The translations under genes and the position numbers were made by a program. The notes beneath the pieces are model-generated. The model was not told where the DNA came from. It saw only the letters and a program-made list of their open reading frames with translations, and did not search any database. A DNA stretch of 64,000 bases, taken from positions 25,941-89,940 of the forward strand of contig CP129475.1 of assembly GCA_030583785.1 (NCBI GenBank), read 5' to 3'. Every line of letters begins with the position of its first letter. The first letter of the stretch is position 1. This stretch comes from Candidatus Dojkabacteria bacterium. Its GTDB lineage: Bacteria > Patescibacteriota > Dojkabacteria > B142 > OLB20. Shown here one piece after another: positions 8,174 to 63,852 of the stretch.

Positions 8174-8599
8174 TTGCTGAATTACGATAATACTATGTTG
8201 CTTCTATATACAGACGGAGGATCAAGAGGAAACCCAGGACCAGCAGCAATTGGTGCCGTTCTTTACTCCGAAACCCAACAATTACTAGATTTTACTGCCG
8301 AGTATAAAGGCGTACTTACCAACAATCAGGCAGAGTATCTTGGTTTGTTGGCAGGATTAGGTTTGGCAAATAAGCATGCTAACGAAAGTTTAACGGTATA
8401 TATGGACAGTGAGCTTGTAGTCAAACAGATGAAAGGTGAATATAAGGTTAAGCATCCAGATATTATTCCGCTTAAAGCAAAGGTCGATAGTCTTCTGGTC
8501 AACTTTTCGCAAGTTAATTTCGTTCATATCGAAAGAGCAAAGAATAAATTTGCAGATAAACTTGTCAATATTGCTTTAGATTCTGCTGCCAATGCGTAA
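8174..8599 (+). CDS. rnhA: Ribonuclease HI
   Basis: LYTDGGSRGNPGPAAIGAVL...NNQAEYLGLLAGL matches the RNase H catalytic core (DEDD). Confidence 0.75.
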   Translation: MLNYDNTMLLLYTDGGSRGNPGPAAIGAVLYSETQQLLDFTAEYKGVLTNNQAEYLGLLAGLGLANKHANESLTVYMDSELVVKQMKGEYKVKHPDIIPLKAKVDSLLVNFSQVNFVHIERAKNKFADKLVNIALDSAANA

Positions 8600-10094
8600 A
8601 CTCAATATAGGTACATATTCAACAAAAGTTCAAAAGCTTCAGTCTGAAAAGGCCGTTCCATCAAAAAAAGAACCAAGCAGGGCAGATAGAAAAGCAAGAA
8701 AAGGATTTCCTATTAAAAGATTGGCTTCAGTACTTGTAGTTGTGCTCATCGCCGGTGGAGCAGTTTTTGGATATATGCGTTTACAGGCACTAAATTCACG
8801 GGTAGAAAAGTTTGATGAACAAGGCAATAAGCTAGAATGTACTAACATTCTCAATCCTGAATGTTGGACAACTGCCTTTAGACCTCAGCTTAAACAGACT
8901 AACGGATTTACTAATGGGCTTGTTTTAGGGATGGATAGCAGAACCGGCAAAGGAGATTCTCTAAAAAATACCGACACCATAATGTTTTTCTCGTTTAACC
9001 ACGAGACGCAAAAGACAATGCTGGTTTCAATTCCTAGAGACTTTTATATCCCAGTATATGCTGCAAAGATTAATGCAATTTATGCATTCACCGGCAATAG
9101 AAATCCCGATGATCCTTTCTTTTACATTAAAGAAACGGTCTCACAAATACTAGGTCAACCAATTCATTATTTTGCTACTGTAAGATTTGAAGGAGTAGTT
9201 GAAGCCATTGATAAAATTGGTGGGATTGAGGTTTGTGTTGAAGATACGCTTACAGCTCAGTATCCAAACGATAATGCCAAACCTAGCGACGCACAGCAAT
9301 GGTTCTTTATTGATTTTCCAGAAGGATGTCAGCAGATGGATGGAGAGAAGGCTCTTGTCTGGTCAAGGTTCCGCTATGTTGCCAAAGGTCCAAGTTCTTA
9401 TGCTAGCGACTTTTCACGAGCCAGAAGGCAACAACAGGTAACCGAAGCAGTTAAAGACAAGCTACTCGCAGAAGACATTAGCGTTGGCGAAAGGGCAGAA
9501 AGGTACTGGTCCTTAATGCAAACCTTTAATGAATCTGTAGATTTCTATGGTGTTTCTTTCGAAGATATTCTTGCAGGGTTGGCATTTATTGAAACTGCTG
9601 ACAGAAGTCCGATAAATGTGGTACTCGATCCGGCTTTGGGTGGAATAAATAAGCTAATCTTCGCAACGAGTCATCCCAATGCTGGGTATATTATTCAGGC
9701 AAGAGATTCCAGTTTTAAGACGATTCAATCATTTATTGGCAGAATCTGGGATAATGCAGATTTCTATAAAGAGCAGCCAAAGATAGTTGTTTTGAATCTG
9801 TCTGAAGAAAAGATATTAGCCAAAGACCATCCTGCCGTAGTCTTGAAAGATAAAATTGAGTTTTATGAACAGTTCCAATACTTAAATGAAGCTACAACCG
9901 AAGCGTTCACAGGAATTAAAGTGTTTGATTTCACTGCTGGAAAAGTCAATGGCAGCCTGAACTACATACTCGATTATTTTGGAATTGAAGAAGCTGAAGA
10001 GTTTCCAGAATTATATGACCTTAAACGCAAAAATAACGAGGATATTCTTATTGTGGTTGGCCCTGAGAAGTTAGAAGTTACGGCAACTCCTTAA
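8592..10094 (+). CDS. LytR-CpsA-Psr (LCP) family cell-envelope phosphotransferase
   Basis: N-terminal TM anchor, then GMDSRTGKGDSLKNTDTIMFFSFNHETQKTMLVSIPRDFYIP, which is the LCP signature (DSR...DT.M......V.IPRD). Confidence 0.7.
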   Translation: MRKLNIGTYSTKVQKLQSEKAVPSKKEPSRADRKARKGFPIKRLASVLVVVLIAGGAVFGYMRLQALNSRVEKFDEQGNKLECTNILNPECWTTAFRPQLKQTNGFTNGLVLGMDSRTGKGDSLKNTDTIMFFSFNHETQKTMLVSIPRDFYIPVYAAKINAIYAFTGNRNPDDPFFYIKETVSQILGQPIHYFATVRFEGVVEAIDKIGGIEVCVEDTLTAQYPNDNAKPSDAQQWFFIDFPEGCQQMDGEKALVWSRFRYVAKGPSSYASDFSRARRQQQVTEAVKDKLLAEDISVGERAERYWSLMQTFNESVDFYGVSFEDILAGLAFIETADRSPINVVLDPALGGINKLIFATSHPNAGYIIQARDSSFKTIQSFIGRIWDNADFYKEQPKIVVLNLSEEKILAKDHPAVVLKDKIEFYEQFQYLNEATTEAFTGIKVFDFTAGKVNGSLNYILDYFGIEEAEEFPELYDLKRKNNEDILIVVGPEKLEVTATP

Positions 10095-17782: not shown

Positions 17783-18340
17783 TTAAGCTTCTATAAGCTT
17801 AACTACAGCTTCAAGACACTGTGGCAATGTATTCCAACCAGCCGAGCTGTTTAGGTGACCACCATCTTTGACAATTGTCAGCTCGCCATTTAGTTCTTTA
17901 GCAAGGAATTCTGCATTATCTAGCGGTACGAGCGGGTCGTTATCGCCATGAATAATTGAGAACTTATGACATTTTATCAGGATTGCTTTGAAGTCAAAGT
18001 CGCGGTCAAGAAAACTGAGTAATCTTTTGTTTTCAATTCTTTCTGAAGGTCCGGATACTAGAATGGCTCCTGCAATATTTTCTGCTTTGCTCGTTTCAAG
18101 ATATCTAAGGATCGCAGGGACTCCAAGTGAATGACCGATAAGATAGATTTCGTCTTGTGAGTTATTCTCGACATGTCTCGAAATTTCGTTAGTCCATTCG
18201 TCACACTTTGGATAATCTGGGGTGGGCATAGAAAGCGAGCAGGCGTAAATATCTAGCTTGTCAAGTTCACCCATCAGCCAAGGTCTCCAGCCTCCGTTAG
18301 GCCTGCCTTCAAAACCGTGGATGATGAATACCTTTGTCAT
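17783..18340 (-). CDS. Alpha/beta hydrolase, YdeN/RBBP9-like serine hydrolase
   Basis: The start IIHGFEGRPNGGW and the nucleophile elbow IGHSLG match the Ser_hydrolase (PF06821) pattern. Confidence 0.55.
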   Translation of the reverse strand: MTKVFIIHGFEGRPNGGWRPWLMGELDKLDIYACSLSMPTPDYPKCDEWTNEISRHVENNSQDEIYLIGHSLGVPAILRYLETSKAENIAGAILVSGPSERIENKRLLSFLDRDFDFKAILIKCHKFSIIHGDNDPLVPLDNAEFLAKELNGELTIVKDGGHLNSSAGWNTLPQCLEAVVKLIEA

Positions 18341-18990: not shown

Positions 18991-19137
18991 AAAGGATTTA
19001 AGATCACAGTTAAGTATAATAGTCTTTTAATCTTTGATGAAACAAACAATCACTCAAAGATTATATCGCAAATTGTCAGTCATTGAGAATCCCGATAGAA
19101 TTGATTAATAAGTAATCAAATTATTATTGAAATTATC

Positions 19138-19611
19138 ATGAACTATCTTCAGCAAATACTACCCAAAACGGTATCGAACAAATATTCCGGTCCACTAATC
19201 CCCCTGTATGTTTTTTATCTTATAACTAGTATTTCTATTGCTAGGAGCCTGATCCACATATTCTCACAAGATGGAGGAGCTGGGAGTATTGCTACTATCC
19301 CCATCAATGATTATGTAAATGGGGGAAAAGAGGCGGTAGTATTCATGTTTGCTATGTGGGGTTTAGGACAGCTTTTAATGGGAATCTTTTATGCTATTGT
19401 TTCCATTAAATATAAAAGTTTACTGCCTTTAATGTATATCTTCATATTCTTAGAGTATTTCGGTGCTTTTCTGATAGGACAATACAAAGGATTGGCAACA
19501 GAAGGTACACCTCCTGGAGCAATTGGTGCTCAAATTCTTATGCCTCTAAGTATTATGATGCTTATCTGGATTCTGAATGGCTCTCACGAATCTAGAAGAA
19601 TTCGCAATTAA
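19138..19611 (+). CDS. Small polytopic membrane protein (4 TM), unknown
   Basis: Four hydrophobic helices. It sits immediately upstream of the heliorhodopsin gene. Confidence 0.4.
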   Translation: MNYLQQILPKTVSNKYSGPLIPLYVFYLITSISIARSLIHIFSQDGGAGSIATIPINDYVNGGKEAVVFMFAMWGLGQLLMGIFYAIVSIKYKSLLPLMYIFIFLEYFGAFLIGQYKGLATEGTPPGAIGAQILMPLSIMMLIWILNGSHESRRIRN

Positions 19612-19711: not shown

Positions 19712-20485
19712 ATGAATACAGAAAATAGCTACAAAAAGTTACGGAAGTGGAATGCAATTATGGCTGTCCTCCACTTTGTCCAAGGAATTGCAATGCTTGC
19801 TATTAGCAGAGATTTTAGCATCCCTCTAACAACTACTTACTTAGACTTCAACTTGCAAGCTAACACGATATTGCCTGTGACAAATGAGGCAATGCAACTG
19901 AATCTGGGCCAGTTTATTTCTGTATTTCTATTCTTATCAGCTTTTTTTCACTTCCTACTTATCTTACCTGGAATATATGAATGGTATGTTAAGAATCTGA
20001 AGAATAAGATTAACTATCTAAGGTGGATTGAATACGCATTTAGCTCTTCGGTTATGATTGTAGCTATCGCAATTCTTTGCGGAATGTTTGATCTTCCGAG
20101 TTTGATTCTCATCTTTGGGCTAAACGCCATGATGAACCTGTTTGGCTTGATGATGGAGCTACATAACCAAACAACGAAAAAGACTAACTGGACTGCGTTC
20201 ATCTTCGGTACAATCGCAGGAATCCTACCTTGGATTGTAATAGCCATGTACTTCTTTGGAGCAGTGTCGTCCGTAGGTACCAACATCCCAACCTTTGTAT
20301 ATGCAATTCTTGTATCGATCTTTCTGTTCTTCAATTGTTTTGCAATCAATATGTTTTTGCAGTACAAACAAGTCGGTCCGTGGAAGGATTATCTTTTTGG
20401 GGAAAGGGTTTATATTCTGTTAAGTCTGATAGCAAAATCAGCATTGGCTTGGCAAATATTCTCAGGTACTTTGAGGCCGATGTAA
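19712..20485 (+). CDS. Heliorhodopsin
   Basis: 257 aa with 7 TM. The sequence is near-collinear with the heliorhodopsin family, with blocks RKWNAIMAVLHFVQGIAMLAIS, LIFGLNAMMNLFGLMMELHNQTT and GERVYILLSLIAKSALAWQIFSGTLRP. It carries H80, the E107 counterion (RWIEY) and the TM7 Lys242 (LIAKS), matching the H80/E107/K241 triad reported for HeR 48C12. Confidence 0.75.
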   Translation: MNTENSYKKLRKWNAIMAVLHFVQGIAMLAISRDFSIPLTTTYLDFNLQANTILPVTNEAMQLNLGQFISVFLFLSAFFHFLLILPGIYEWYVKNLKNKINYLRWIEYAFSSSVMIVAIAILCGMFDLPSLILIFGLNAMMNLFGLMMELHNQTTKKTNWTAFIFGTIAGILPWIVIAMYFFGAVSSVGTNIPTFVYAILVSIFLFFNCFAINMFLQYKQVGPWKDYLFGERVYILLSLIAKSALAWQIFSGTLRPM

Positions 20486-20517: not shown

Positions 20518-21144
20518 ATGGGTAAGCAATTGGAATTATACGAGAAATACTTTGTTAAGAACAACTTCGAAAGGTTGGGATTATTCAAGTTGCTAAGAGA
20601 TGAATTCGACATTCGATCAGCATTATACCTTGGAAGTTTTCTACATATCACTCCTGCATTTGTATTTCCCAAGACAGTCTTTGTTGATAGCGATAGACGA
20701 GTACAAAAGTTCTATGCAGATCCTGAGATAAGAAAAATGGTTAAAAGCAAAAAGCAATATAAATCAGAAGCTGACTTTATAGGTATCCAGCAAAATTACG
20801 AAAAAACCAACTTACTAGATGAGGATTCTTTTGACCTACTAATTTCTCAATATGCAGGTTTTGTCTCACAGGCTGGCAAACGCTATCTAAAGAACAATGG
20901 CATTTTAATCGTAAATAACTCTCATGGTGATGCAAGCATGGCTTTTCTTGATCAGGATTATCAATTAGTTGGAGTAATCAACCATTCTAACGGTAACTGG
21001 AGATACAGTTCCAAAAACTTAGGTGACTACTTTGTTCCAAAGAAGCCACCACATCCATCAGTTGAGCAAATTAAATCAGTGATGAGGGGGGTAGTATATA
21101 CCAAATCTGCAGGTATTTATGTTTTCAAGCTTAGCAAGGATTAG
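20518..21144 (+). CDS. Hypothetical protein
   Basis: ORF only. It lies directly downstream of the heliorhodopsin gene. Confidence 0.4.
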   Translation: MGKQLELYEKYFVKNNFERLGLFKLLRDEFDIRSALYLGSFLHITPAFVFPKTVFVDSDRRVQKFYADPEIRKMVKSKKQYKSEADFIGIQQNYEKTNLLDEDSFDLLISQYAGFVSQAGKRYLKNNGILIVNNSHGDASMAFLDQDYQLVGVINHSNGNWRYSSKNLGDYFVPKKPPHPSVEQIKSVMRGVVYTKSAGIYVFKLSKD

Positions 21145-21239
21145 GATTTGCAGTAACTCTCAGGAATAGAAATCCAATCTTCTATTCCTTTGAACCTATA
21201 AAGTACGCAATTTGATCCAGATGAGCTAAGTGATAAAAC

Positions 21240-21324
21240 CGGAGAGGACAGGATTCGAACCTGCGGTTCCTTGCGGAACACAGTCTTTCCAGGACTGCCA
21301 TTTAAACCACTCATGCACCTCTCC
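21240..21324 (-). tRNA. tRNA-Ser (anticodon GGA)
   Basis: The reverse complement GGAGAGG-TG-CAT...ATG-G-CAGTC-CTGGAAA-GACTG-(long variable arm TGTTCCGCAAGGAACC)-GCAGG-TTCGAAT-CCTGT-CCTCTCC-G folds as a class II tRNA with a 7-bp acceptor stem and G73 discriminator. CCA is not encoded. Confidence 0.8.
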
Positions 21325-21457
21325 AAATTGTAGGTAATTATAGCTTATTCGTTCTCGCTTTAGAAATAGTTAATAAAGACCTGCAATAATTTCTTTAGAA
21401 AACAGCTCTTTAGTTTTTAAGGGAACTATTCTAAAATCAGGCATATATTATTCATTT

Positions 21458-22534
21458 TTGATGGACAATAAAAAGAAAGCCCTGCTTGCAGGCGGCGGTT
21501 TGCTTGGAGGTCTACTAGTTGCAGACAAATCGGGCGCAATCGTAAAAGGTATCGCTATCGGAATAGTCTGCATTCTGCTAGCAATGCTTCTTACTTTTAA
21601 TAGTGTGGGTGGAGTTCAAGAAGTATCCAACGATGTGGCAGCAATTCCGTTGGTCAGTGTTAATGATCTTGATGGTCAACGAGGAATGGTTAAGGCTTTT
21701 GGCACTATCAGCACAGAATCGTCATTGTCATTTGAACTAGTTAAATGTGCAGAGGTAGTATGCCTTTCTCCAGAGCTATTGTTGTCAGAAGAAAATCTTG
21801 CTTACTATAAAACTACTTTGCAAAGATTCGAAGTGATTCGCAAAGTTGAAGAGCAAGAAAGTAGTGGCAGTAGAGTTAGCGAAAAAGTGACATACAAAAA
21901 TGAGTGGGTCACAAAATCAGAAAAAGAGCAGTGGGCGGATTTGAAAATTGGAAGTGTTAAGATCAACCCGGTCAAAGCAAGAACGCTTATAGATACAGAA
22001 AGAGAAGAACTTACTGGTGTTTATATCGAGGGTTTAACTCAGTTAGAGACTTACGGCAGACAACCCGCAGAAGACGAACCAGCCTTTGGAACTACTCGCG
22101 CTGTGGTTACTTATTTGCCTTTAGACGATCGTGAATATACTGTTGTTGGCGAACTCAGAAGTGATGGCTTTAGTGCCGGAGACCCGTTCATTTTCACTGA
22201 TCTATCTGACAGCCAGCTCGTCTCTCGATTAGGAGGAGAAGAGTCTACAAGCCGCTGGCTAATGCGATTTGTTGCATTTGTTCTGTTAACATTTGGCTTT
22301 ACAAGCATATTAAGTCCGATACTTGTATTTACTGACATGATTCCTCTTGCTGGTAAAGCTGCACGCAGCGCAGCAACACTTGTCAGCGCAATTGCAGCAG
22401 GTATTATTGTGTTGGCTACAGTATTCTTGCTTAATTACTGGTGGGCAATAGCATTTATAATCATTTTGGGTTTATTTGGATTTGCATTTATTGCATCTAG
22501 AAAGACCAATACTAATACAGAGCAGAAAAGTTAA
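21458..22534 (+). CDS. Membrane protein, hypothetical
   Basis: One N-terminal TM and two or three C-terminal TM segments, with a central soluble domain. Confidence 0.45.
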   Translation: MMDNKKKALLAGGGLLGGLLVADKSGAIVKGIAIGIVCILLAMLLTFNSVGGVQEVSNDVAAIPLVSVNDLDGQRGMVKAFGTISTESSLSFELVKCAEVVCLSPELLLSEENLAYYKTTLQRFEVIRKVEEQESSGSRVSEKVTYKNEWVTKSEKEQWADLKIGSVKINPVKARTLIDTEREELTGVYIEGLTQLETYGRQPAEDEPAFGTTRAVVTYLPLDDREYTVVGELRSDGFSAGDPFIFTDLSDSQLVSRLGGEESTSRWLMRFVAFVLLTFGFTSILSPILVFTDMIPLAGKAARSAATLVSAIAAGIIVLATVFLLNYWWAIAFIIILGLFGFAFIASRKTNTNTEQKS

Positions 22535-26319: not shown

Positions 26320-26955
26320 ATGGCTCCACACCTGACACCGGCGCAGTCTACTGTGCTTAAGTATATTAAAAACCATATTCTGGCCAGAGGTTATGCGCCA
26401 ACTTTGTCTGAACTGCAAATCTCGCTTGGGGGTATTACTAAAAGAGCTGTGGTTAAACATCTCGAGGCACTAGAACGAAAAGGCCATATTCTCAGATCCA
26501 GCAAACCCAGGGGTATAACTTTAGTAGAAGATACCGGCAGTCCAGTAATGAGCATGAATATTCTCGGTTATGCCAATGCTGGTGCACCTTTAGTTTATGC
26601 AGAAGAACAAAAAATTGGCGTACTGCGTATAGATAAAAGTCTGCTTCCTGTAACAAAAAATGTATTTGCGCTAATCATTAAAGGTGACTCTATGAATAGG
26701 CGCAAGCTTAACGGTATACCATTATCCAACGGCAATTATGCCATTGTTGCCAACAATCAAGAAGTTCGCAATGGTGATGTTGTTTTAGCAATTATAGATG
26801 GTTGTGCCACCATAAAATCTTACCGTCACGATGGCCGAATGGTGGTTCTTTATCCAGAATCCACCAATTCTTTACACAGACCTATATACCTAAGCAGTGA
26901 TAACGAAGCGAGCATTTATGGCAAAGTAATCTCGGTTTTGCGTAATCCGGTTTAA
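26320..26955 (+). CDS. lexA: LexA repressor
   Basis: N-terminal wHTH (TPAQSTVLKYIKNHILARGYAPTLSELQ...HLEALERKG). The C-terminal S24 domain has the catalytic Ser in IKGDSMN and the catalytic Lys in TIKSY. Confidence 0.8.
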   Translation: MAPHLTPAQSTVLKYIKNHILARGYAPTLSELQISLGGITKRAVVKHLEALERKGHILRSSKPRGITLVEDTGSPVMSMNILGYANAGAPLVYAEEQKIGVLRIDKSLLPVTKNVFALIIKGDSMNRRKLNGIPLSNGNYAIVANNQEVRNGDVVLAIIDGCATIKSYRHDGRMVVLYPESTNSLHRPIYLSSDNEASIYGKVISVLRNPV

Positions 26956-26973
26956 TAGCGTATACATCAAATT

Positions 26974-27294
26974 ATGTCCGTAACAACATCTCCGGTTGGG
27001 TTTGCTTCACCGGCAGAAGATGTAATGGAGCGCAGTCTCGATTTACACGAACTGCTGGTAAAGCACCCTGCTGCCACTTTCTTTGTGCGTGTTAGTGGCA
27101 ATCAATTAGCAGTAAAGGGAATCTTCACAGACGATATTCTTATCGTAGATAGATCCCTAAAACCTACGATTAATTCTTTGATAGTAGCTATTATCGAGGG
27201 TGACTTTGTACTTGGCTATTTTAATTCATTTTCTAAAAAAGATAATCTCGAAGTGTGGGGAGTTGTGGTTTCGCTTATCAGGGAGAATCTATAA
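26974..27294 (+). CDS. umuD: UmuD'-like protein (S24-fold, catalytically inactive, N-terminally truncated)
   Basis: GFASPAEDVMERSLDLHELLVKHPAATFFVRVSGNQLAVKGIFTDDILIVDRS aligns residue-for-residue with E. coli UmuD 25-85 ([53 protein letters not shown]). GDSM is GNQL here, and the KK of UmuD 97-98 is absent. Confidence 0.65.
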   Translation: MSVTTSPVGFASPAEDVMERSLDLHELLVKHPAATFFVRVSGNQLAVKGIFTDDILIVDRSLKPTINSLIVAIIEGDFVLGYFNSFSKKDNLEVWGVVVSLIRENL

Positions 27295-27296
27295 AA

Positions 27297-28574
27297 ATGA
27301 TTGCCGTAGTTGATTGCAACAATTTTTTTGTCTCCTGTGAGTTAGTTTTTCACCCAGAGCTTAAAGGGCATCCCGTTATGGTTGCATCAAACAATGACGG
27401 ATGCATTGTTGCCCGTTCGCCCGAAGTTAAGGCCTTGGGGATCCCAATGGGAGCACCTGCATATCAATGGAAGGATTTGATCAGGCAGCATGACATCAAA
27501 ATATTTTCAGGCAATTTTGCTCTTTACGGAGATCTATCCAAGCGAGTAATGCAGATTCTTCTGCAAGCTGCTCCTACAGTAGAGATATATTCGATAGATG
27601 AAGCCTTCTTAGAATTTCCATCTTTGACAAACGAAATGATCATCTCTATTTGTAAAAACCTAAGAAGTCGGTTATTACAGAGTACAGGCATCCCTGTAAG
27701 TATTGGTATCGGAAAAACAAAAACATTGGCCAAGATTGCCGTCGAGATAGCAAAAAAGAATTCTGAATTTCAGGGCGTGTTTTCTGCCGAAAGCGACAAA
27801 TTTGATTCATTTCTTGCTCATATGCCAACCTCTGACATCTGGGGCATCGGTCGCAAATTGAGCGAACGCCTAAAGTGTTTTGGTATCTATACGGCTAAAG
27901 ATCTCAAACAAGCTCAGGACATAATTATCAGAAAATGCACGCATCTCCCCGGAATTCGTACCACATATGAATTACGAGGTATTAAATGCATAGAACTGCA
28001 AACTGCCCATTCTTCGCGTAAAGGCATAACAGCTTCTCGTTCATTTGGTCATCCTGTATCTACTTATACCGAAATGGCTGAAGCGATTGCTCTTTATACA
28101 ACCAGAGCCGCCGAAAGACTGCGTTCTGATAAATCAATTGCATCTTGGATACAAATCTGCATCGTTACCAATTATTTTCGTAAAGATCAAAAACAATATG
28201 TCGGATTTGACTCGGGACTTCTGCTTCAGCCAACAGCAGTTACTTCAGAAATAATTAAAACAGCTCATATATTATTAAAGCGTATCTTTAAAGAAGGATT
28301 CATATATAAAAAGGCTATTGTCAACTTGGGCGGAATCACTCCGGCATCTCAGCAACAAATAAGTATGCTCGCAGACATAAAAACCTCCCAGCGTCTTTCA
28401 AGACTAATGACGGCAGTAGATAAAATCAACAGGAAGGCAGGACGAAACAAAATCCATTATGCGTCTTGCGGTATATTAAAAAAGAAAAGTTGGCATCCAA
28501 AATCAGAAATGCTTTCGCGAAGGTATACAACAAGTTGGCAAGAACTGCCGGTCGTAAAAGCAATCTATAGCTAA
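27297..28574 (+). CDS. umuC: Y-family DNA polymerase (UmuC/DinB, Pol V catalytic subunit-like)
   Basis: MIAVVDCNNFFVSCE... matches the UmuC/DinB N-terminus (ALxDCNxFYxSCE). The likely start is the ATG 2 nt after the umuD stop. The listed ORF starts earlier, at 27255. Confidence 0.75.
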   Translation: MIAVVDCNNFFVSCELVFHPELKGHPVMVASNNDGCIVARSPEVKALGIPMGAPAYQWKDLIRQHDIKIFSGNFALYGDLSKRVMQILLQAAPTVEIYSIDEAFLEFPSLTNEMIISICKNLRSRLLQSTGIPVSIGIGKTKTLAKIAVEIAKKNSEFQGVFSAESDKFDSFLAHMPTSDIWGIGRKLSERLKCFGIYTAKDLKQAQDIIIRKCTHLPGIRTTYELRGIKCIELQTAHSSRKGITASRSFGHPVSTYTEMAEAIALYTTRAAERLRSDKSIASWIQICIVTNYFRKDQKQYVGFDSGLLLQPTAVTSEIIKTAHILLKRIFKEGFIYKKAIVNLGGITPASQQQISMLADIKTSQRLSRLMTAVDKINRKAGRNKIHYASCGILKKKSWHPKSEMLSRRYTTSWQELPVVKAIYS

Positions 28575-30094
28575 TCAGTTTGCAAAGATAAATAAGCTTT
28601 GCCTAAATAATCGATCAAGACAGAAGCGCTAAGTGCCTGAACACCAATTTCTTTAGCAGCAATGTCGGCAGCTCTTCCATGAAGATACACTCCAAGTATA
28701 GCTGCCTCAGCGGTGGGCAAGCCCTGTGCAATTAAACTGGCAATGATTCCGGTTAAAACATCTCCAGTCCCAGCAGTAGCCAAGCCGCTGTTTCCAGATG
28801 AATTGAAATGTATGCTGCCGTCAGGTGTGGCGACAGCAGTGTACTTGCCTTTTAGGACAACAGTAATCCCGTGTGAGATGACAAATCCCTGCAATGTTTC
28901 GAGCATCTCAATACTATCTTCCCAGTCACCTGTGAGTCTTTTGAACTCCCCGTGATGCGGTGTAATGACAGTATTCGGCGGAAGCATATCCAGCATACTT
29001 TCGTTTTCGGAAAGAATGTTGAGTGCATCTGCGTCCAGTACAAGATTTGTTTTGAGATTGCACTGTCCAAGAAATGAATCTAAGGCCTGAACCACATCGT
29101 CATGGGTGCTAATCCCGGGGCCAATTGCAAAGGCATCGAATTTTTTATCAAAAGGTATGTTAGAAAGGTGGTCTTGTTTACGATCGGCTATATACATTGA
29201 TTCAGGAATATATACTTGCAGGGCTGTGACAATACCTTCGGGTATGTTTGCAGTGACGAGTCCGCATCCTGCAACAAGAGCAGATTTTGTTGCCAGCAAA
29301 GCTGCCCCTGAATAACCGCGACTTCCGGCCGCAATCAGTACATGTCCCAGTTTATGCTTATAGGTAAAATCGTCTCGTTTGATCTTTCGTAATAACTTAT
29401 TCGCAATTTCTTCGGTTGTATAATGAAAAGGTGATTCAAGAGATTCTATGTATTTGTAATCTAGACCGATTGAATCAATGTTCCAGTCACCGAGGTAGTC
29501 CGCAGATTCCTTAAGTAGAAAACTAACCCTTGGTCTTTCGAGAACTACAGTTTCATCTGCTTTAATACAGGCATCTTCAACCAGCATCTCGCCCGGCAGT
29601 CCACTTGGAACATCTATGGCCAGAACAAATGCCTCAGATTTGTTAATTTTGTTAACTACTTTTCCAAGTAGGGACTTATTATCTATAGCCCTACTTAAGC
29701 CACTTCCAATTAATGCATCGACAATCAGATCATCCTTTTTCAGGGTTGGGAATGTTTTAATGTCACTGACTTCGTAAATCGGAATAGTTTGCAGTTTTCT
29801 TAGGTCGCTTGTAAGTTGATTTCGAAGCTCGCTAGAGCTGTTTCCTGTCTTTACTAAATAGACCCTGGGATCATATCCCTTTTTGCTTAACAGTAAAGCA
29901 GTTGCTAACCCGTCGGCGCCATTATCTCCGTTTCCGCAAAAAACATATATCCTGCTATCTTTCTTTAGCTTCTTAATTAGTCTTTTGAATGTCGCCTGAG
30001 CTGCGTTGGCTACGAGATGAGCTTTACTTAGAACTCCAGACTCGATTGTTGCCTGCTCGGCATCTTTTAGTTGCTGGCTGCTGATAATTTTCAT
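28571..30094 (-). CDS. nnr: Bifunctional NAD(P)H-hydrate repair enzyme Nnr (YjeF-N epimerase plus C-terminal ADP-dependent dehydratase)
   Basis: YVFCGNGDNGADGLATA (YjeF_N) and HKLGHVLIAAGSRGYSGAALLATKSALVAGCGLVT (carbohydrate-kinase-like domain). The start is taken as MKIISSQQL at 30094. The ORF can extend to 30145. Confidence 0.7.
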   Translation of the reverse strand: MKIISSQQLKDAEQATIESGVLSKAHLVANAAQATFKRLIKKLKKDSRIYVFCGNGDNGADGLATALLLSKKGYDPRVYLVKTGNSSSELRNQLTSDLRKLQTIPIYEVSDIKTFPTLKKDDLIVDALIGSGLSRAIDNKSLLGKVVNKINKSEAFVLAIDVPSGLPGEMLVEDACIKADETVVLERPRVSFLLKESADYLGDWNIDSIGLDYKYIESLESPFHYTTEEIANKLLRKIKRDDFTYKHKLGHVLIAAGSRGYSGAALLATKSALVAGCGLVTANIPEGIVTALQVYIPESMYIADRKQDHLSNIPFDKKFDAFAIGPGISTHDDVVQALDSFLGQCNLKTNLVLDADALNILSENESMLDMLPPNTVITPHHGEFKRLTGDWEDSIEMLETLQGFVISHGITVVLKGKYTAVATPDGSIHFNSSGNSGLATAGTGDVLTGIIASLIAQGLPTAEAAILGVYLHGRAADIAAKEIGVQALSASVLIDYLGKAYLSLQTD

Positions 30095-30147
30095 AGCTAC
30101 ATTGTATGTTAAGCGAAAGCAAAGCACAAAAGTTGTATAATGCATTC

Positions 30148-32503: not shown

Positions 32504-35500
32504 TTGAAAACCATAAAAAAAATATTTGCAGTTATCGGAATCTTGCTAATAGCAGGGGTTTCAGTTTTAGTTATTGCAAACCTTTCACAAGACCTTTCAC
32601 CAGAACAGAGTAGTGCAAATTTTGAATATGGCTTGATTGCAAAACAGAAGTCTGAATCCAGTCAAATTAAATTAACAACTGGTGATAGGGTGGATGTAGA
32701 AGTCCTCATGCTTGCTCCACAATCTGATCAGGGCAATCCAGAATCTGCTGAGGTAGTCATAGAATATAATCCTTCTCAATTGGAATTTGTAGAGATTTCT
32801 GAAGCAAGCGATGTATTAATGATTGGTCCAGAGAGCGATCCGACTAGAGGTCGCATCATCGTTGATTTTGTCAAACAAGGTCAGGGTGGATTTGTTGGGG
32901 ATAGTCTAAACCTAAAACTATTAGCAACGGCTTCTTTCACTCTTCGCTCCTCGGAACTTGATAATGTAAAAATCTCCTTTTCATCTGACTCAAAAGTAGG
33001 GGATAAAATGATTTCGCAATTAAATGCTGACGAAGAATTTAGTGTTGTTGTCTCAGGTAGTCTCCCTGTTTGTGGTAATAGCAATTGTGAATCAGGAGAA
33101 ACACTAATATGCCCACAGGACTGCAAAACAGTACCTACCCCATTAGCCAATAATATAAATACTCCTGAAGTAGATCCTAAATGCTCAGAGCTTGGCATTA
33201 ACTATGCTTCAGTTGTTCCGGTTGGAGACAATTGGCACGAGAAGGCTCAAAGCCTTGGTATGGGTTATACCCTAGAGATTGTAGGCAATTCTGAACAAAA
33301 ACTGGGTGTATTGCAGTCATTTCGTGCAGCAATGGCTAGAGGATTAACGCCAATTCTTCGTATATGTTATGGAAGTTATTGTTCATTTTCAAATGTTAAT
33401 ACATACATCAACTTTGTTAATGATCTAGCAGATGAACTAGCAAATGATGGAACTTTCTATATAATAGCAGGGCCGAATGAACCGTTGTCTGAGAATTGGT
33501 TGGGGAATATTGTTGGTGATCCAATATCTACGGCACAAAAAATAACACCATACATGAATGCTGTAATCGATGGTGTAAGTAAACCTAATGTTAAAATCCT
33601 CTCACCGGTTTTTAATACTACTAACGATAATTTTCCTTTTCTGGTTAGTGAGATGAAAATGCGAGGAGCTAAATTCAATCAACTAGATGGTATTGCTGGC
33701 AATGCATATAATCTTAAAGGCTATTCACTGGGTGAAACCCTTTCAGATTTCGTTACCAGAATGCGTGCCCAAGGCTTTTCTGCAAATGATATATATTTAA
33801 CTGAAGTAGGAGCATTTGAATCAGATAAAAATAATGGATGGACAGGTACAAAAGTCCCTCATCAAGAAGCCTTGCAGAATCTTCGTAACGAAATAGTAAA
33901 GCTTAGAAATGATAATAAAGTGAAAGCATATCTGTTGTTTAACTCTTTTGGGACAAATTCCGATTCCAATTTTGACTATAATGTCTTCTCTGATGATGAG
34001 TTAAATTATCTGGTTGGACCAGAATGTGTTAATGAAGATAATTCTCCATCCTCGACTCCCACAGCCACACCGTCGCCAACTATATCTAGCGTTCCTTTAT
34101 GTCGATATCTTTCAACTCAAGCAAGAGTCCAACGCTCGGTTACTGAACCTTGGGTTGATAATCTAGAGATAAGTTGTGAGGAAAGCTTTTCTGTCGGGTC
34201 GTTTCATGATAATAACGGTCAGTTTGCAAATGATACAATCATTAATGTCATCGATCCTCAAAACAGGACAAGTAATCTTAAGAACGGAGATAGCTTCAGG
34301 ACATCTGTCCCAGGCGACTATCGAGTTGTTGTAACTACAAACGGACAAGAAGGTGTAAATTGCCGAGATGAAGCAAAAGTAAGCTGCTCAAGCACCACAA
34401 CTCCGACACCCTGCCCAATAGAGCCAGTATGTTCAGCAGGTTATGATTTAGTAACGATACCACCATTTGATGGAGTCGGCTGTACAGTTTATGAATGTGT
34501 ACCTAGTTCAACAACTTTGACCTGTCAATCAGACAGATTTGTCGATAGCTTTTCTGCCCAGGGGATTAATAATTTTATCTGGAAAACAAGCGAAAAAGGT
34601 GGCGTAAGAACCGCGAATGGACATCTGTTAATCTCTGTTCCTTCTGGATCTTTTCAAAATAACTATGTAGAGACTAGATCTTTCATGCAAGGGAATTTTC
34701 AAATAACTGCTGATATCGTTGGACTTTCCACAGATTATAAAAATAGTGGAACTGCAGAATTAGGAGTAGGAAGTCCACTTGGACATGCGCACCTAGGCTT
34801 GAATCAAGGACACGATGGAAAACAATATCTCGAAGCGAATATTAGAATTGGTGAAAATTGGCTGGGTTCTAAGACATTAGATTTGGGTAATGTAAAACCA
34901 CCTGTGAAACTAATAATCTCTAGGTTCGGATCAACAGTATCTATGAGTGCAGAATATGGGGGAACTACCAAGCAAGTTGCAATTTTCAATAATGTTTACC
35001 TAGGGAATGTAAATGCTCAGCTTTACTCGTTTACAAAAGATGACAATCCAGCTATTAATGCAGCGTTTGATAATTACACTTATGGATGTTCTTCTGATCC
35101 CGGCTCGGTTACGGGTGTTCCAACTCCGGTTCCACCAACGCCACGACCAACTTGCCCAGTTGATCTAAAGGTCTGTCCTAGTGGATTTACAGTTAGTAGA
35201 GATCCATTTAATAACTGCGAATTCCGAACCTGTCCAATTGTGAGTTCAGTTTGCGGTAACAATATTTGCGAGACTGATGAAGAAATTAACAAATCTTGTT
35301 CTATTGATTGTGCACCAACAGTTACCCCGACTCCGACTCAGGCTCCAAAATGTACCTCGCATGAATATACACAGTGGTCTGAATGTATTAATGGATACAG
35401 AACTCGTAAATTGATATCTTCTTTACCAGAAGGATGTAAGCAGGGAGTTAGTCCAATTTTCGGCGAGGTCTGTGGTTCTGGATCATTAATATGCACCACA

Positions 35501-35983
35501 GATACAAAAGCATGTGATGACGGGACATGGGTTAGCAGGGATCCTTCAAACAATTGTGAATTTATGCAATGTCCAGGTCAAACAGAGTGTGTACAGCCAC
35601 CAGCTTGTGCAAATCCTGGGCCTGGTGAAGCAAGATGTTATCTCTCTCCAGAAACAAATTGGTGTAGCTTGGAATGTGAACCTATTCCTGCTTGTGCATT
35701 GGATTCGGCAGAACAGAGATGTTCTTTAGCTCCAGGTGTCAATTATTGTCAAGCTTTAGACCAAAATAGCGTAGACGAAAAGACAGCTAATGCCTGTAAG
35801 GCGGATTATGATGGCAATGGAACTATAGATATTAATGATTTTGCAGTATTTGCAAAAAATTACAAAAAAGAGAATATCGATTGTTCGCTGGACATTGTTA
35901 ATAATGACTGCAAACTGGATATCTCTGATTTTAGATTATTAGGATACATTTATGGTCAAGAAAATGCTTGTAAGAACAATTAG
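32504..35983 (+). CDS. Large secreted multi-domain protein: N-terminal anchor/signal, GH clan-A (GH5-like) domain, S/T/P linkers, beta-sandwich (ConA/LamG-like) domain, three Cys-rich repeats, C-terminal dockerin
   Basis: N-terminal TM KIFAVIGILLIAGVSVLVIA. IIAGPNEPLSENW (GH5 acid/base NEP) and ~110 aa later IYLTEVGAF (GH5 nucleophile TE.G). Linkers NSPSSTPTATPSPT, SSTTTPTPCP and TPVPPTPRPT. Dockerin duplicated Ca-binding loop DYDGNGTIDINDFAVF ... DIVNNDCKLDISDFRLL. Confidence 0.6.
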   Translation: MKTIKKIFAVIGILLIAGVSVLVIANLSQDLSPEQSSANFEYGLIAKQKSESSQIKLTTGDRVDVEVLMLAPQSDQGNPESAEVVIEYNPSQLEFVEISEASDVLMIGPESDPTRGRIIVDFVKQGQGGFVGDSLNLKLLATASFTLRSSELDNVKISFSSDSKVGDKMISQLNADEEFSVVVSGSLPVCGNSNCESGETLICPQDCKTVPTPLANNINTPEVDPKCSELGINYASVVPVGDNWHEKAQSLGMGYTLEIVGNSEQKLGVLQSFRAAMARGLTPILRICYGSYCSFSNVNTYINFVNDLADELANDGTFYIIAGPNEPLSENWLGNIVGDPISTAQKITPYMNAVIDGVSKPNVKILSPVFNTTNDNFPFLVSEMKMRGAKFNQLDGIAGNAYNLKGYSLGETLSDFVTRMRAQGFSANDIYLTEVGAFESDKNNGWTGTKVPHQEALQNLRNEIVKLRNDNKVKAYLLFNSFGTNSDSNFDYNVFSDDELNYLVGPECVNEDNSPSSTPTATPSPTISSVPLCRYLSTQARVQRSVTEPWVDNLEISCEESFSVGSFHDNNGQFANDTIINVIDPQNRTSNLKNGDSFRTSVPGDYRVVVTTNGQEGVNCRDEAKVSCSSTTTPTPCPIEPVCSAGYDLVTIPPFDGVGCTVYECVPSSTTLTCQSDRFVDSFSAQGINNFIWKTSEKGGVRTANGHLLISVPSGSFQNNYVETRSFMQGNFQITADIVGLSTDYKNSGTAELGVGSPLGHAHLGLNQGHDGKQYLEANIRIGENWLGSKTLDLGNVKPPVKLIISRFGSTVSMSAEYGGTTKQVAIFNNVYLGNVNAQLYSFTKDDNPAINAAFDNYTYGCSSDPGSVTGVPTPVPPTPRPTCPVDLKVCPSGFTVSRDPFNNCEFRTCPIVSSVCGNNICETDEEINKSCSIDCAPTVTPTPTQAPKCTSHEYTQWSECINGYRTRKLISSLPEGCKQGVSPIFGEVCGSGSLICTTDTKACDDGTWVSRDPSNNCEFMQCPGQTECVQPPACANPGPGEARCYLSPETNWCSLECEPIPACALDSAEQRCSLAPGVNYCQALDQNSVDEKTANACKADYDGNGTIDINDFAVFAKNYKKENIDCSLDIVNNDCKLDISDFRLLGYIYGQENACKNN

Positions 35984-36599
35984 TTTGATACTGTTACCAC
36001 TGGCCTTTGTTTGTCTGTTTGCATCTAATGTTAATGCACAAGATAATTCAGCAAAGATAACATTTGAAACAGAGGATGTCACGGTTGATATTGGCCAAGA
36101 TGTCCAGGTCAAAGTGGTCTACTCTGGGAGCTTTGACTCCAATGGAGTTTCGCTTCAATTGTCATATAATCCTGAACAGCTTACAGTTGTAAGTATAAAG
36201 GGAGAAACTGATACCCTCTCTGTTGGAACAACGATAGAAAACGGTCTTGCAGGAATAGATTTAGCCAAGGCTGAATCATTCCAAGACGGAGATGTATTGG
36301 CAGTAATTACTGTTCGACTTCTCACAGAAAAAGATACTACTTTGAAGTTATTAAGTACATCAAGAATTGTTGGCATAGAAGAGCAAACCCCTGAGCAAGA
36401 ATTGGGTGTTAAGTTTGCCTATCCTGAATTATTTCTCGCTACTAACGAAACTACAGAGAATGACAATAACTATGAGGAGTTTCAACCTGCCATAGCTATA
36501 ATACTAATGGTTGTTGGATCAATAATTCTTTCGGTTGCACTGATCGCATTATTCATTGTTTCTCTGAAAAGTAAACCAAATGTCAGTACAAAGATGTAA
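35952..36599 (+). CDS. Membrane-anchored cohesin-like domain protein
   Basis: Signal peptide, then ITFETEDVTVDIGQDVQVKVVYSGSFDSNGVSLQLSYNPEQLTVVSIKGE...GLAGIDLAKAES...GDVLAVITVRLL, which matches the cohesin beta-sandwich pattern (V.V......V.F.G......C.F...YDP..LE...I). It ends in a C-terminal TM plus a KSKPN tail. Confidence 0.5.
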   Translation: MVKKMLVRTISLILLPLAFVCLFASNVNAQDNSAKITFETEDVTVDIGQDVQVKVVYSGSFDSNGVSLQLSYNPEQLTVVSIKGETDTLSVGTTIENGLAGIDLAKAESFQDGDVLAVITVRLLTEKDTTLKLLSTSRIVGIEEQTPEQELGVKFAYPELFLATNETTENDNNYEEFQPAIAIILMVVGSIILSVALIALFIVSLKSKPNVSTKM

Positions 36600-37143
36600 T
36601 TGGGCAACTAGCGATGATCTCTTAGTTAGGTATCACGACCAAGAGTGGGGTAAACCGAACCACGATGACCGCAGACATTTCGAGCATCTGTGCTTAGAAA
36701 TAATGCAATCAGGATTAAGCTGGTTAACAGTTCTTAGAAAGCGGCAATCTTTTGCTAACGCATTTATGCAATATGATTTGCAAAAGATTGCCGCAATGAC
36801 CGAACTCGATGTCGAAAGACTAATGCTTGATGAATCGATCATAAGAAACAAAAGAAAGATCGAAGCCATCATTCATAACGCAAGAGTTGTTAGGGATATG
36901 CAAGAAAAGGGATTTCGCCTAAGTGTCTTCTTCTGGAGTTATGTAAACGGAGTCCCATTAAAGAATAAGTGGTTAAATCAAGAACAACTGCCTGCAAAGT
37001 CAGATTTATCAGAGCAAATAGCTAAAGACATGCGGAAGAATGGCTTTAAATTTGTGGGTCCAACAAATATTTATGCTCATTTGCAATCAATGGGAATAAT
37101 TAATGACCACTTACAAAGCTGTTTTAGGTATAATCAGGTGTAG
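36580..37143 (+). CDS. tag: DNA-3-methyladenine glycosylase I
   Basis: RCNWATSDDLLVRYHDQEWGKP...HLCLEIMQSGLSWLTVLRKRQSF is a near-canonical Tag N-terminus. Confidence 0.75.
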   Translation: MSVQRCNWATSDDLLVRYHDQEWGKPNHDDRRHFEHLCLEIMQSGLSWLTVLRKRQSFANAFMQYDLQKIAAMTELDVERLMLDESIIRNKRKIEAIIHNARVVRDMQEKGFRLSVFFWSYVNGVPLKNKWLNQEQLPAKSDLSEQIAKDMRKNGFKFVGPTNIYAHLQSMGIINDHLQSCFRYNQV

Positions 37144-39589: not shown

Positions 39590-40462
39590 ATGAGGATTCT
39601 CAAAGGAGCAATTCGTTTATCAAGATATAAAGAAGTTCTGGGCACAGTGTTTGTGCTTTCCTTTTTCGGGGTTTTATTGGCACAGCATAATACAGAAGTG
39701 CTTAATTATCAGCTAATTCCAATCATTATTCTTGCTAACTTGGGTGCAACAACATTCGCTTTCATGATTAACGATGTAGAAGATGCAGAAGATGATGCCA
39801 GAGATCCCAAAAAAGCTAAAAGAAACCCTATCTCTGCCGGTTTATTAAGTCATTTTGAAGGAACTACTATCTCAATGCTTATGTTCATAGTCTCCTTAAT
39901 TTTGTTTGCACTACTTGGGGAGCTTGTGTTCTTGGTGGGGGCTTCTATGTTGATTATTGGCTTTCTTTACTCTTGGAGAAGAATTAGACTTAAAGGTTTG
40001 CCATTTATCGATATGATCTCTCACGGGTATTTCTTAGGTGGAGCTGCACTTCTTGTCTCATATCTTGCTTTCGCTCAGCTTTCTATAGAAATATTACTTG
40101 CTTTCTTGGGTGTGTTTCTTGTATCGCTTGGTGGAGACATGTTTAACGAGATCAGAGATTACGAATCAGATAAGAAAGCTAAACTCAAAAACACAGTTTC
40201 GGTTTTAGGATTGAAACCAAGCATCTTTCTAAGATACTTTTTTACCGTGGTTGGCTTAGGTCTGCTCGGGTTTACTATTCTTAGTATTTTCTCTTTATTA
40301 AATATCCCTGCAGTTATCGTGGGTATTGTTCTTACTGTTCTTCTAAGCTTATATACGATATTTATTAGTAAAGAATCGATCTTAGACTACGATAATATAA
40401 TGTTTTATAATCCGCTACTTGCTATAGTATGCGTAGTGTTAATAATCTCAATATTTTATTAA
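39590..40462 (+). CDS. UbiA-family prenyltransferase
   Basis: Polytopic, with NDVEDAEDDARDP (the NDxxDxxxD Asp-rich motif) and a second DxxxD-like motif in GGDMFNEIRDYESD. Confidence 0.65.
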   Translation: MRILKGAIRLSRYKEVLGTVFVLSFFGVLLAQHNTEVLNYQLIPIIILANLGATTFAFMINDVEDAEDDARDPKKAKRNPISAGLLSHFEGTTISMLMFIVSLILFALLGELVFLVGASMLIIGFLYSWRRIRLKGLPFIDMISHGYFLGGAALLVSYLAFAQLSIEILLAFLGVFLVSLGGDMFNEIRDYESDKKAKLKNTVSVLGLKPSIFLRYFFTVVGLGLLGFTILSIFSLLNIPAVIVGIVLTVLLSLYTIFISKESILDYDNIMFYNPLLAIVCVVLIISIFY

Positions 40463-55031: not shown

Positions 55032-55733
55032 TTGCCATATAGAATGATTAAGATGCCAGCAATAAATCTTGACGATTACGGAGGAGCAAATGCATTTTCA
55101 TGGACACATGAATACCTTCAAAACTATCTTACAAACGGCAAGCACCGAATAATAAAACGACCTCTTCTAAAAAATGCCTTTTCCCAGATTCATAGATCAG
55201 ATTTTGTCCTAAAAGAATTTGAGGCGTTTAGTAATGAAGATCGCGAACTCGATATCGGTTATGGCGAAGTCATTAATAAACCGACTGTCATTGCAGAAAT
55301 ACTAGAACTTTTATCGATTAAACTTGGCGGTAAATATCTTGACATCGGAACAGGTTCGGGCTATGTGGCTGCACTGCTTGGAATGTCTGTCGGTGACGAC
55401 GGCATAGTTTACTCATTAGAAAGAATACAATTCTTAGCAGATATTGCCCGTATTAACTTGAGCAAGTATCCAGATCTTCAAAATGTAAAAATTCTATTTA
55501 GAGATGGAAGCAACGGCTTCTCTGATTACGCACCCTATGATGGAATACATATTGCAACCGCTTTCGACGAAGTACCTAAAAGCATACTTGTTCAACTAAA
55601 GATCGGCGGAAAGCTTGTTATGCCGACTACCTTTAATGACATCAGGCTTTATGAAAGGATCGGTGAAGACGATTTTGAAGAAACAGTTATTGAAGGTTAT
55701 AAATTTGACCCAATGCAGAAGGGTGTTGAATAG
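55032..55733 (+). CDS. pcm: Protein-L-isoaspartate O-methyltransferase
   Basis: SAM motif I YLDIGTGSGYVAALL. The post-I and motif II/III spacing and GKLVMP match PIMT. Confidence 0.7.
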   Translation: MPYRMIKMPAINLDDYGGANAFSWTHEYLQNYLTNGKHRIIKRPLLKNAFSQIHRSDFVLKEFEAFSNEDRELDIGYGEVINKPTVIAEILELLSIKLGGKYLDIGTGSGYVAALLGMSVGDDGIVYSLERIQFLADIARINLSKYPDLQNVKILFRDGSNGFSDYAPYDGIHIATAFDEVPKSILVQLKIGGKLVMPTTFNDIRLYERIGEDDFEETVIEGYKFDPMQKGVE

Positions 55734-63030: not shown

Positions 63031-63852
63031 TTGCTTATGGCAAGAAGGTTTTCTGTAAAAATTCCCGTGAGTAGAAGGCGACCACTTAAGTCTCTTGCCA
63101 AAAAAGATTGGCGACCGATTTTGATTCAAATCAAAGCTAAAGTAGTGCTTATCGGTAAGAAACTTCGTGGCACAATTCTTGGTAAGTCGGCAAATATTCT
63201 TGAGCTTGTAAAAAATAATCCGAAAAAAGCCAAAATAGCAGGATTAACAATATTATCTGTCGTTATTATTCTGTTTGTTGCATATATCTTTTTCGATAGG
63301 AACACCGTTAAAGTTGTGATTGGTGAGCCCGAGATAATCACTTTCTCAACAGATGAACCAGAAGAAGCTATACCTTCAGGTAATTACACATGGATCGGGC
63401 GTGAAATTGATCCTAAGTATATTAACCTGCCAACAATATCAAGGTCTGGGTATATTCAGCATGTCGGAGTAGACCAGAATAATCAAATCGCTGTTCCCTC
63501 AAATGTTTTTATCGCCGGCTGGTTTGTAAATACAGTCAGACCAGGACAGAAAGGACTAAGCATTATAGACGGACATGTAGATGGTCCTACTCGAGAAGGG
63601 ATTTTTCATAGGTTAGAGGAACTTCAGATAGACGATACTTTCGAGATTATTCTAGGCAACGAAACTGTCTTAAATTATCGGGTTCTTGAGGTAAAAACTG
63701 TTCCTGTTTCGGAAGCTGAAAAACACCTGTTTGAACAGAAACTCGATGTCGTCAGCCAGTTAAACTTAATAACTTGTGGCGGCAATTACAACCGTGAATC
63801 CAGAACCTATGAAGGCAGAGTTATAGTTATGGCTCAACTGATGGGTAATTAG
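63031..63852 (+). CDS. Sortase (transpeptidase)
   Basis: N-terminal TM KIAGLTILSVVIILFVAYIFF, catalytic His region LSIIDGHVDGP, the TLXTC active-site motif in QLNLITCGGNY, and the conserved Arg in EGRVIVMAQL. Confidence 0.65.
   Translation: MLMARRFSVKIPVSRRRPLKSLAKKDWRPILIQIKAKVVLIGKKLRGTILGKSANILELVKNNPKKAKIAGLTILSVVIILFVAYIFFDRNTVKVVIGEPEIITFSTDEPEEAIPSGNYTWIGREIDPKYINLPTISRSGYIQHVGVDQNNQIAVPSNVFIAGWFVNTVRPGQKGLSIIDGHVDGPTREGIFHRLEELQIDDTFEIILGNETVLNYRVLEVKTVPVSEAEKHLFEQKLDVVSQLNLITCGGNYNRESRTYEGRVIVMAQLMGN

Follow-up and report, generated by a model that had tools for sequence, protein, structure and literature searches.

Two heliorhodopsins (HeRs) of solved structure are the closest described counterparts of the protein studied here: TaHeR, from the Thermoplasmatales archaeon SG8-52-1 (PDB 6is6, 7u55, 7clj), and 48C12, the founding member of the family, from a freshwater actinobacterium (PDB 6su3, 6su4, 6uh3, 9ljj). 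HeR photocycles last more than 1 s and include a long-lived O state, and many HeRs have been reported without ion transport (PMC9385722). The proton of the HeR Schiff base has been described as being passed on to the counterion and His cluster without release to the bulk solvent (PMC9726877). Within the same family, OcHeR controls the ABC transporter OmrDE through positively charged intracellular loops, and regulation of glutamine synthetase by AbHeR and of photolyase by TfHeR is also cited, with such loops proposed as the partner-binding surface (PMC11109279). The first-pass annotation of the DNA analysed here had described the physiological role of HeRs as still unsettled, which is partly outdated, since light-dependent regulation of a glutamine synthetase, a photolyase, and an ABC transporter has been reported for individual members.

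Rhodopsins of CPR bacteria have also been described. Chiriac et al. (2022, Microbiome 10:84, PMC9166423) examined 1326 CPR genomes, of which 86 contained a total of 115 rhodopsins. Ninety-eight of these were HeRs, including 80 from Saccharimonadia, 7 from Dojkabacteria, and 3 from ABY1. These CPR HeRs form clades of their own, and the commonest motifs in their seventh transmembrane helix (TM7) are SLVAK, SLIAK, and SFVAK (PMC9166423); it has been suggested that they serve as sensors connected with the defence against oxidative stress (PMC9166423; PMC8612252). In addition, Saccharibacteria carry the SacRs (Jaffe et al. 2022, PMC9296517), type-1 rhodopsins that act as outward proton pumps, have a DTS motif, and show a membrane orientation opposite to that of HeRs. 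These rhodopsin-bearing Saccharibacteria lack blh, the SacRs bind external retinal fast, and their retinal is thought to be host-derived, with uptake from actinobacterial hosts proposed (PMC9296517).

The window, by which we mean the whole 64-kb stretch of Candidatus Dojkabacteria DNA that was analysed, carries a + strand gene at positions 19712..20485 that begins with ATG, encodes 257 aa, and ends with TAA. Its product is almost certainly a full-length, intact HeR. An exact-sequence look-up identified this product as the GenBank protein WKZ28021.1, deposited as [quoted passage not shown]. Both family profiles were matched along their entire length, the Pfam model PF18761 (Heliorhodopsin) with 334.7 bits (E 3.7e-100; profile positions 1-242 of 242; curated cut-off, 26.7 bits) and the NCBIfam equivalog NF038020 ("heliorhodopsin HeR") with 351 bits (E 3.4e-105; positions 1-244 of 244; cut-off, 100 bits). 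The PDB sequences matched were six heliorhodopsins only, with E values from 4.5e-79 to 1e-45, headed by TaHeR (6is6, 4.5e-79) and followed by 48C12 (9ljj, 6su3, 6uh3; ~1e-64). Every testable defining feature of the family was found in the protein, and the identification as a HeR made in the first-pass annotation was thus borne out by the Pfam, NCBIfam, and PDB matches.

In a MAFFT alignment, the window HeR was 53% identical to TaHeR, over 250 aligned residues, and 47% identical to 48C12. As the former is a crystal structure, the HeR fold of the window protein is not in doubt. TaHeR and the window HeR are of equal length, have the stretches MMELHNQT and FFNCFAINM in common, and share the same set of His, Glu, Ser, and Lys residues, as well as a Met at the position of Q213 in 48C12 (M214 in the window HeR). 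However, the window HeR carries the residues of 48C12 at two positions, S112 and N138, that are Ala and Thr in TaHeR, and its loop between TM5 and TM6 is 5 residues longer. Moreover, TaHeR is archaeal and has been characterised experimentally, whereas the window HeR comes from a CPR bacterium and is known from its sequence. With respect to 48C12, the N-terminus of the window HeR is two residues shorter (H21 vs H23), numbering is the same along residues 76-149 (S76, H80, N101, E107, and E149 coincide), and a one-residue offset appears after TM4 (K242 vs K241), the TM7 motifs of both proteins being close (SLIAKSALAWQIFSGTL in the window HeR vs SLVAKSALAWQIFSGTL in 48C12). By contrast, the SacRs and the window HeR belong to different Pfam families (bac_rhodopsin vs Heliorhodopsin), with no homology at that level.

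The residues involved in chromophore binding and proton handling were located by alignment to 48C12 and TaHeR, with a codon check for K242, E107, and H80. The Schiff-base Lys in TM7 is K242 (K241 of 48C12), encoded at 20435..20437 of the + strand, and forms the end of an SxxxK motif (S238-L-I-A-K242) whose first residue, S238 (S237 of 48C12), is encoded at 20423-20425 (+). The single Glu counterion of the protonated Schiff base in TM3 is E107 (E107 of 48C12; codon at 20030..20032, +), and the two His residues paired in the Schiff-base cavity are H80 (H80 of 48C12; codon at 19949..19951, +) and H21 (H23 of 48C12; codon at 19772-19774, +). The first-pass annotation had claimed an intact triad of H80, E107, and a TM7 Lys from three short motifs, all of which were found at the expected places: FFHF from residue 78, which contains H80; RWIEY from residue 104 (R104-W105-I-E107-Y108), which contains E107; and SLIAKSALAW from residue 238, which contains K242. 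The H23/H80/E107/K241 set that it proposed to look for is therefore present as H21/H80/E107/K242.

Further equivalences with 48C12 in the MAFFT alignment (48C12 numbering in brackets) were N14 (N16), Q24 (Q26), R104 (R104), W105 (W105), Y108 (Y108), W174 (W173), W247 (W246), and Q248 (Q247), in addition to H21, S76, H80, N101, E107, E149, S238, and K242, already mentioned. When the comparison was extended to 83 HeRs (the window protein, 80 genome loci, TaHeR, and 48C12), S76, N101, R104, E107, Y108, E149, W174, S238, and K242 were invariant in 83/83 sequences, with H80 present in 82/83 and H21 in 81/83; N14, H21, Q24, H80, W105, W247, and Q248 were among the residues invariant or nearly so.

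Seven hydrophobic cores, with mean Kyte-Doolittle values of 0.94-1.87, line up with the TM helices of TaHeR and 48C12; their boundaries were placed manually, guided by hydropathy and by the alignment. Eleven Lys/Arg residues lie on the side of the N-terminus, which also comprises the TM2-3, TM4-5, and TM6-7 loops, vs 2 on the opposite side, formed by the remaining loops and the C-terminus, a distribution that, following the positive-inside rule, predicts a cytoplasmic N-terminus and an external C-terminus, which is the inverted orientation of HeRs. Among the loop lysines, K94, K97, and K99 are in the first intracellular loop (ICL1) and K219 and K224 in the third (ICL3); with these positive charges in its intracellular loops, the window HeR resembles the regulatory HeRs.

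Regarding the history of the gene, the HeRs of a six-member CPR clade, made up of the window HeR and its five closest relatives, showed pN values of 0.08-0.17 and saturated synonymous sites (pS 0.67-0.89), with dN/dS of 0.03-0.10 where it could be computed. Purifying selection on the window HeR gene is therefore strong. The GC content of the gene is 0.384, vs 0.389 for the window. Low dN/dS, saturated synonymous sites, and window-like GC together show an old and constrained gene, native to the host genome, and therefore neither a pseudogene nor a recent import. Recent horizontal acquisition, considered separately, was unsupported, as its GC equals that of the window and its synonymous sites are saturated with respect to the nearest relatives.

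The contig carrying WKZ28021.1 is 1,172,464 bp long and is assigned to Candidatus Dojkabacteria, the records flanking the HeR being WKZ28020.1 (locus tag QY330_00220) and WKZ28022.1 (QY330_00230). The window has 38.9% GC, is covered to ~94% by ORFs of at least 110 aa, and encodes housekeeping proteins recognised by Pfam, including RNase J, a ClpB/ClpC-type AAA+ chaperone, ProRS, enolase, and SSB. Two window proteins, the enolase and the 208-aa protein encoded next to the HeR gene, have identical counterparts in "candidate division WS6 bacterium OLB21", and the window and OLB21 ProRSs share one 90%-identity cluster. The Pfam matches of the 64-kb window also include a sortase (63031..63852) and a LytR-CpsA-Psr protein (8592..10094) and no outer-membrane family, which together would fit a monoderm-type envelope; with the Dojkabacteria label, this agrees with the monoderm host expected for a HeR in the first-pass annotation.

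A search of 185,579 reference genomes placed the nearest HeRs at 77-84% identity: five proteins, all from CPR MAGs labelled as Dojkabacteria or Saccharibacteria, one of them on a closed chromosome of 1.19 Mb. The next ones, at 65-66%, came from Dojkabacteria and Paceibacterota MAGs, and those at 55-63% from Chloroflexota, further CPR MAGs, Actinomycetota, and Thermoplasmata. The Dojkabacteria record and the CPR origin of the nearest relatives mean that the small-genome, CPR-like context described in the first-pass annotation is correct. In a neighbour-joining tree, a rough one drawn without support values, the window HeR fell in an all-CPR clade, with other CPR HeRs forming at least one further clade, in agreement with the CPR clades of Chiriac et al., whose set already included Dojkabacteria HeRs and the SLIAK motif found here. 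Several of the close HeR relatives come from MAGs labelled Afr_mines, NC_groundwater, and AnMBR, titles that point to low-light sources (mine water, groundwater, and an anaerobic bioreactor), which fit poorly with a purely light-sensing role.

Concerning the supply of retinal, no Blh/BCD, phytoene desaturase (CrtI), phytoene synthase (CrtB), or lycopene cyclase (CrtY) was found by Pfam among the window ORFs of at least 110 aa, an absence that covers 64 kb of a 1.17-Mb genome and that agrees, for all the ORFs scanned, with what had been stated in the first-pass annotation. The same scan of every ORF of at least 110 aa found no second rhodopsin in the window, and its sole prenyl-related match was a UbiA-family prenyltransferase (39590..40462). 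In this respect, the pathway-free window resembles the host of TaHeR, which lacks retinal synthesis; the fenestration that HeRs possess above the beta-ionone ring has been postulated, in the case of TaHeR, as the entry route of exogenous retinal, given the inability of its host to produce the chromophore (PMC9385722). With no retinal pathway in the window and none in the rhodopsin-bearing Saccharibacteria, the chromophore of the window HeR would most likely be scavenged from a host or from the environment through the lateral opening known in HeRs.

Taking these data together, we favour, with a probability of roughly 0.8, a canonical HeR acting as a slow-cycling regulatory photoreceptor with scavenged retinal. 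The mechanism is transferred from TaHeR, 48C12, and OcHeR, the first two with identities of 47-53% to the window protein. All-trans retinal would be bound covalently at K242 and green light absorbed, near 550 nm as in relatives. After isomerisation, the Schiff-base proton would pass to E107 and the His cluster with no ion movement across the membrane, and the late O state would be held for ~1 second. During this state, the Lys/Arg-rich cytoplasmic loops (K94, K97, K99; K219, K224) may alter the activity of a bound partner. By regulating a partner without transporting ions, the protein would therefore be a regulatory light switch and not an energy converter.

A variant of this reading gives the retinal supply itself a signalling role. 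The HeR would be photoactive only with retinal supplied by a host or neighbour and would thus report "light plus suitable host nearby", gating the physiology of the epibiont. Alternatively, in view of the many close relatives with low-light origins, it would sense a ligand independently of light; we consider either idea unlikely. Both start from the lack of a retinal pathway in the 64 kb and from the habitat labels of related MAGs.

The regulatory photoreceptor that we favour would act on a partner, and the two genes flanking the HeR gene had been put forward as candidates in the first-pass annotation. The upstream one, found in the ORF list at 19138..19611 (+), encodes a small membrane protein of 157 aa with four TM segments; the downstream one, at 20518..21144 (+), encodes the 208-aa protein. 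No curated family was assigned to either at E <=10 (Pfam) or <=1 (NCBIfam). The AlphaFold (AF2) model of the 208-aa protein had a pLDDT of 94.6, and its matches in the PDB by Foldseek were almost all class I SAM-dependent methyltransferases (TM-scores 0.33-0.56, ~9-19% identity), so the model indicates a class I methyltransferase-like fold. This protein belongs to a large uncharacterised family, with 914 detected members of ~207 aa without a Pfam domain, present in CPR, Chloroflexota, Bathyarchaeota, and Methanococcoides; a metagenome scan for its close relatives gave no matches. On the opposite strand to the HeR gene and 1.4 kb upstream of it, Pfam identified an alpha/beta hydrolase (17783..18340).

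The three same-strand genes are separated by gaps of 100 and 32 bp and no terminator-like site was found between them, so they may well be co-transcribed. The only + strand match upstream of the three in the promoter scan was a sigma-70-like site, TTGTCA-17-TAGAAT, at 19073..19101. It constitutes weak evidence, because the region contained 6 such sites vs 8.9 +/- 2.7 expected from shuffled sequence, that is, fewer than by chance. The layout is probably the same in the OLB21 and H3C67 assemblies, of the same lineage, as the accessions of the flanking proteins are two apart in both (18/20 and 67/69). This arrangement could be taken as a dedicated module in which the HeR is the sensor, the 4-TM protein the membrane transducer, and the methyltransferase-fold protein the effector. 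However, that interpretation is quite improbable in view of the neighbourhoods of other HeRs.

For the latter, 18 window proteins were compared by tblastn with 80 HeR loci, including as much as ~8 kb of flanking DNA to the left and right, contig ends permitting. The HeR alone was matched, except in two contigs that are identical to the window, and no homologue of either flanking gene was detected at any of the 80 loci, including the five with HeRs of 77-84% identity. Clustering of 1027 neighbour ORFs revealed no neighbour shared among CPR HeR loci, and in the 13 CPR loci that were mapped, the neighbourhood was different in each. Recurrent HeR neighbours were confined to Chloroflexota, among them one DegV-family-like gene, as judged by reading its sequence, at 7 loci. 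In the reverse direction, neighbour proteins from the seven closest HeR loci had no counterparts in the 64-kb window except for one weak glycosyltransferase match.

The relatives of the flanking proteins gave the same picture. Among the closest relatives of the 208-aa protein, four (57-61% identical) were inspected, and none had a HeR in the 5 kb to its left or right. The 157-aa protein had 457 relatives, the best ones ~50-60% identical and those with a named source from Bacteroidota; in the three contexts inspected, they adjoin RND pump, TetR, DJ-1, or beta-lactamase genes, and no rhodopsin was found near them. The proposal that the two flanking genes are functional partners of the HeR was consequently rejected, as neither recurs in the 80 HeR loci and their relatives elsewhere have no rhodopsin nearby. 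Nor does the window offer a partner of the types already described: the HeR gene is not adjoined by a gene for a histidine kinase, a glutamine synthetase, a photolyase, or an ABC transporter, the last three are absent from the Pfam matches of the window, and none of the ten recurrent partner genes of the HeR operon groups of Cho et al. was found among the same-strand neighbours of the window HeR gene. In this, the window HeR differs from OcHeR, AbHeR, and TfHeR, whose partner genes are in the HeR operon.

A light-independent role, in retinoid or lipid binding or as a structural membrane protein, or the retention of an idle opsin in a place where light and retinal are scarce, is also very improbable. 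The window belongs to the same species-level lineage as "WS6 bacterium OLB21", and the OLB genomes presumably derive from a wastewater bioreactor; this origin, the Afr_mines, NC_groundwater, and AnMBR MAGs with close HeR relatives, and the lack of a retinal pathway in the window would fit such a role. However, wastewater and systems connected to the surface do not lie in complete darkness, and all the residues of the chromophore pocket and the Schiff base have been kept under strong purifying selection, which is not expected for an idle gene or for a function without retinal. Finally, a light-driven proton transporter like V2HeR3 of giant viruses, powering a fermentative CPR cell, is highly improbable: the energy metabolism of CPR bacteria is limited and type-1 rhodopsins do serve as pumps in some Saccharibacteria (PMC9296517), but the window HeR groups with prokaryotic HeRs (TaHeR 53%, 48C12 47%), many HeRs have been reported without ion transport (PMC9385722), and proton transport by HeRs has so far been reported for viral ones only (PMC11109279, PMC9385722).

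In conclusion, the HeR of this Dojkabacteria genome was already known, since the protein had been deposited under its correct name and both CPR HeRs and the idea of retinal borrowing by CPR bacteria had been published. It thus has little weight as a discovery, and what value is left lies in experimental work on it. Among the literature compared here, there is no biochemically characterised CPR heliorhodopsin, and the compact and intact window HeR could be the first. Having been rejected as partners, the two flanking genes need no further effort, and with a genome of 1.17 Mb, the search for the HeR partner would be confined to a small number of candidates.

Two of the 80 HeR-bearing loci collected from reference genomes carry diderm labels, which bears on the statement in the first-pass annotation that heliorhodopsins are restricted to monoderms. 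One of them, L045 (CAZGDO010000004.1, 39% GC), is labelled as "uncultured Gammaproteobacteria", and the other, L080 (CAZZJW010000031.1, 67% GC), as "uncultured Pleurocapsa sp.". In the rough neighbour-joining tree of 83 HeRs, the L045 protein is flanked by two HeRs of Kerfeldbacteria, a CPR group, and that of L080 falls within an Anaerolineae/Aggregatilineales group. Rather than breaking the monoderm rule, both contigs have probably been mis-binned or mislabelled.

Analysis of the neighbourhoods of these loci revealed two recurrent genes in Chloroflexota, located within three genes of the HeR (loci L014, L020, L021, L032, L034, L037, and L042). A DegV-like gene, assigned by reading its sequence and not by a family scan, adjoins the HeR at a distance of up to three genes in seven Chloroflexota loci, and a gene for a membrane protein of around 260 aa (cluster 4) was also found near the HeR in seven loci. 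Earlier papers on HeRs also mention an association with DegV.

In the window, the HeR gene (19712..20485, + strand) is preceded by a gene encoding a 4-TM protein (19138..19611, + strand), whose nearest relatives beyond its own lineage are 50–60% identical. The named ones belong to Bacteroidota (Lutimonas, Schleiferiaceae, and Halosquirtibacter) and not to CPR, a distribution that is odd for a CPR gene and that may be the trace of a lateral transfer. Downstream of the HeR, the 208-aa protein (20518..21144, + strand) is confidently predicted to adopt a class I methyltransferase-like fold. Over 900 proteins of around 207 aa make up its family, for which neither Pfam nor NCBIfam has a model; members occur in CPR, Chloroflexota, Bathyarchaeota, and Methanococcoides, and residues H43, S110, Q111, N133, S135, H136, and D138 are invariant. 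Beyond this block and an intervening, oppositely oriented tRNA-Ser(GGA) gene (21239..21325, − strand) lies a gene for a membrane protein of 358 aa (21458..22534, + strand) matching the TMEM43 family (E = 8.8e-09).

Damage-repair genes are notably concentrated within these 64 kb of a 1.17-Mb genome, including those for LexA (26320..26955, + strand), followed by a Y-family polymerase (IMS plus DUF4113; 27255..28574, + strand), an NAD(P)HX repair fusion (28571..30145, − strand), a 3-methyladenine glycosylase (36580..37143, + strand), and a protein-isoaspartate methyltransferase (55032..55733). In addition, two very large ORFs were found, one of 1159 aa (32504..35983, + strand), with no Pfam match at E values up to 1e-5, and another of 1856 aa (49386..54956, − strand), with Peptidase_M23 as its sole Pfam match (best stretch, residues 1190–1299). 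CPR genomes typically encode such giant proteins, whose function is unknown.

Regarding habitats, several of the close relatives of the window HeR (L010, L013, L016, L033, L011, and L038) come from MAGs whose titles point to low-light sources, namely Afr_mines_BE2012 (deep-mine water), NC_groundwater (groundwater), and AnMBR (anaerobic membrane bioreactor); WS6 bacterium OLB21 is also a member of the window's own lineage. Such low-light sources contrast with the persistence of a conserved light sensor.
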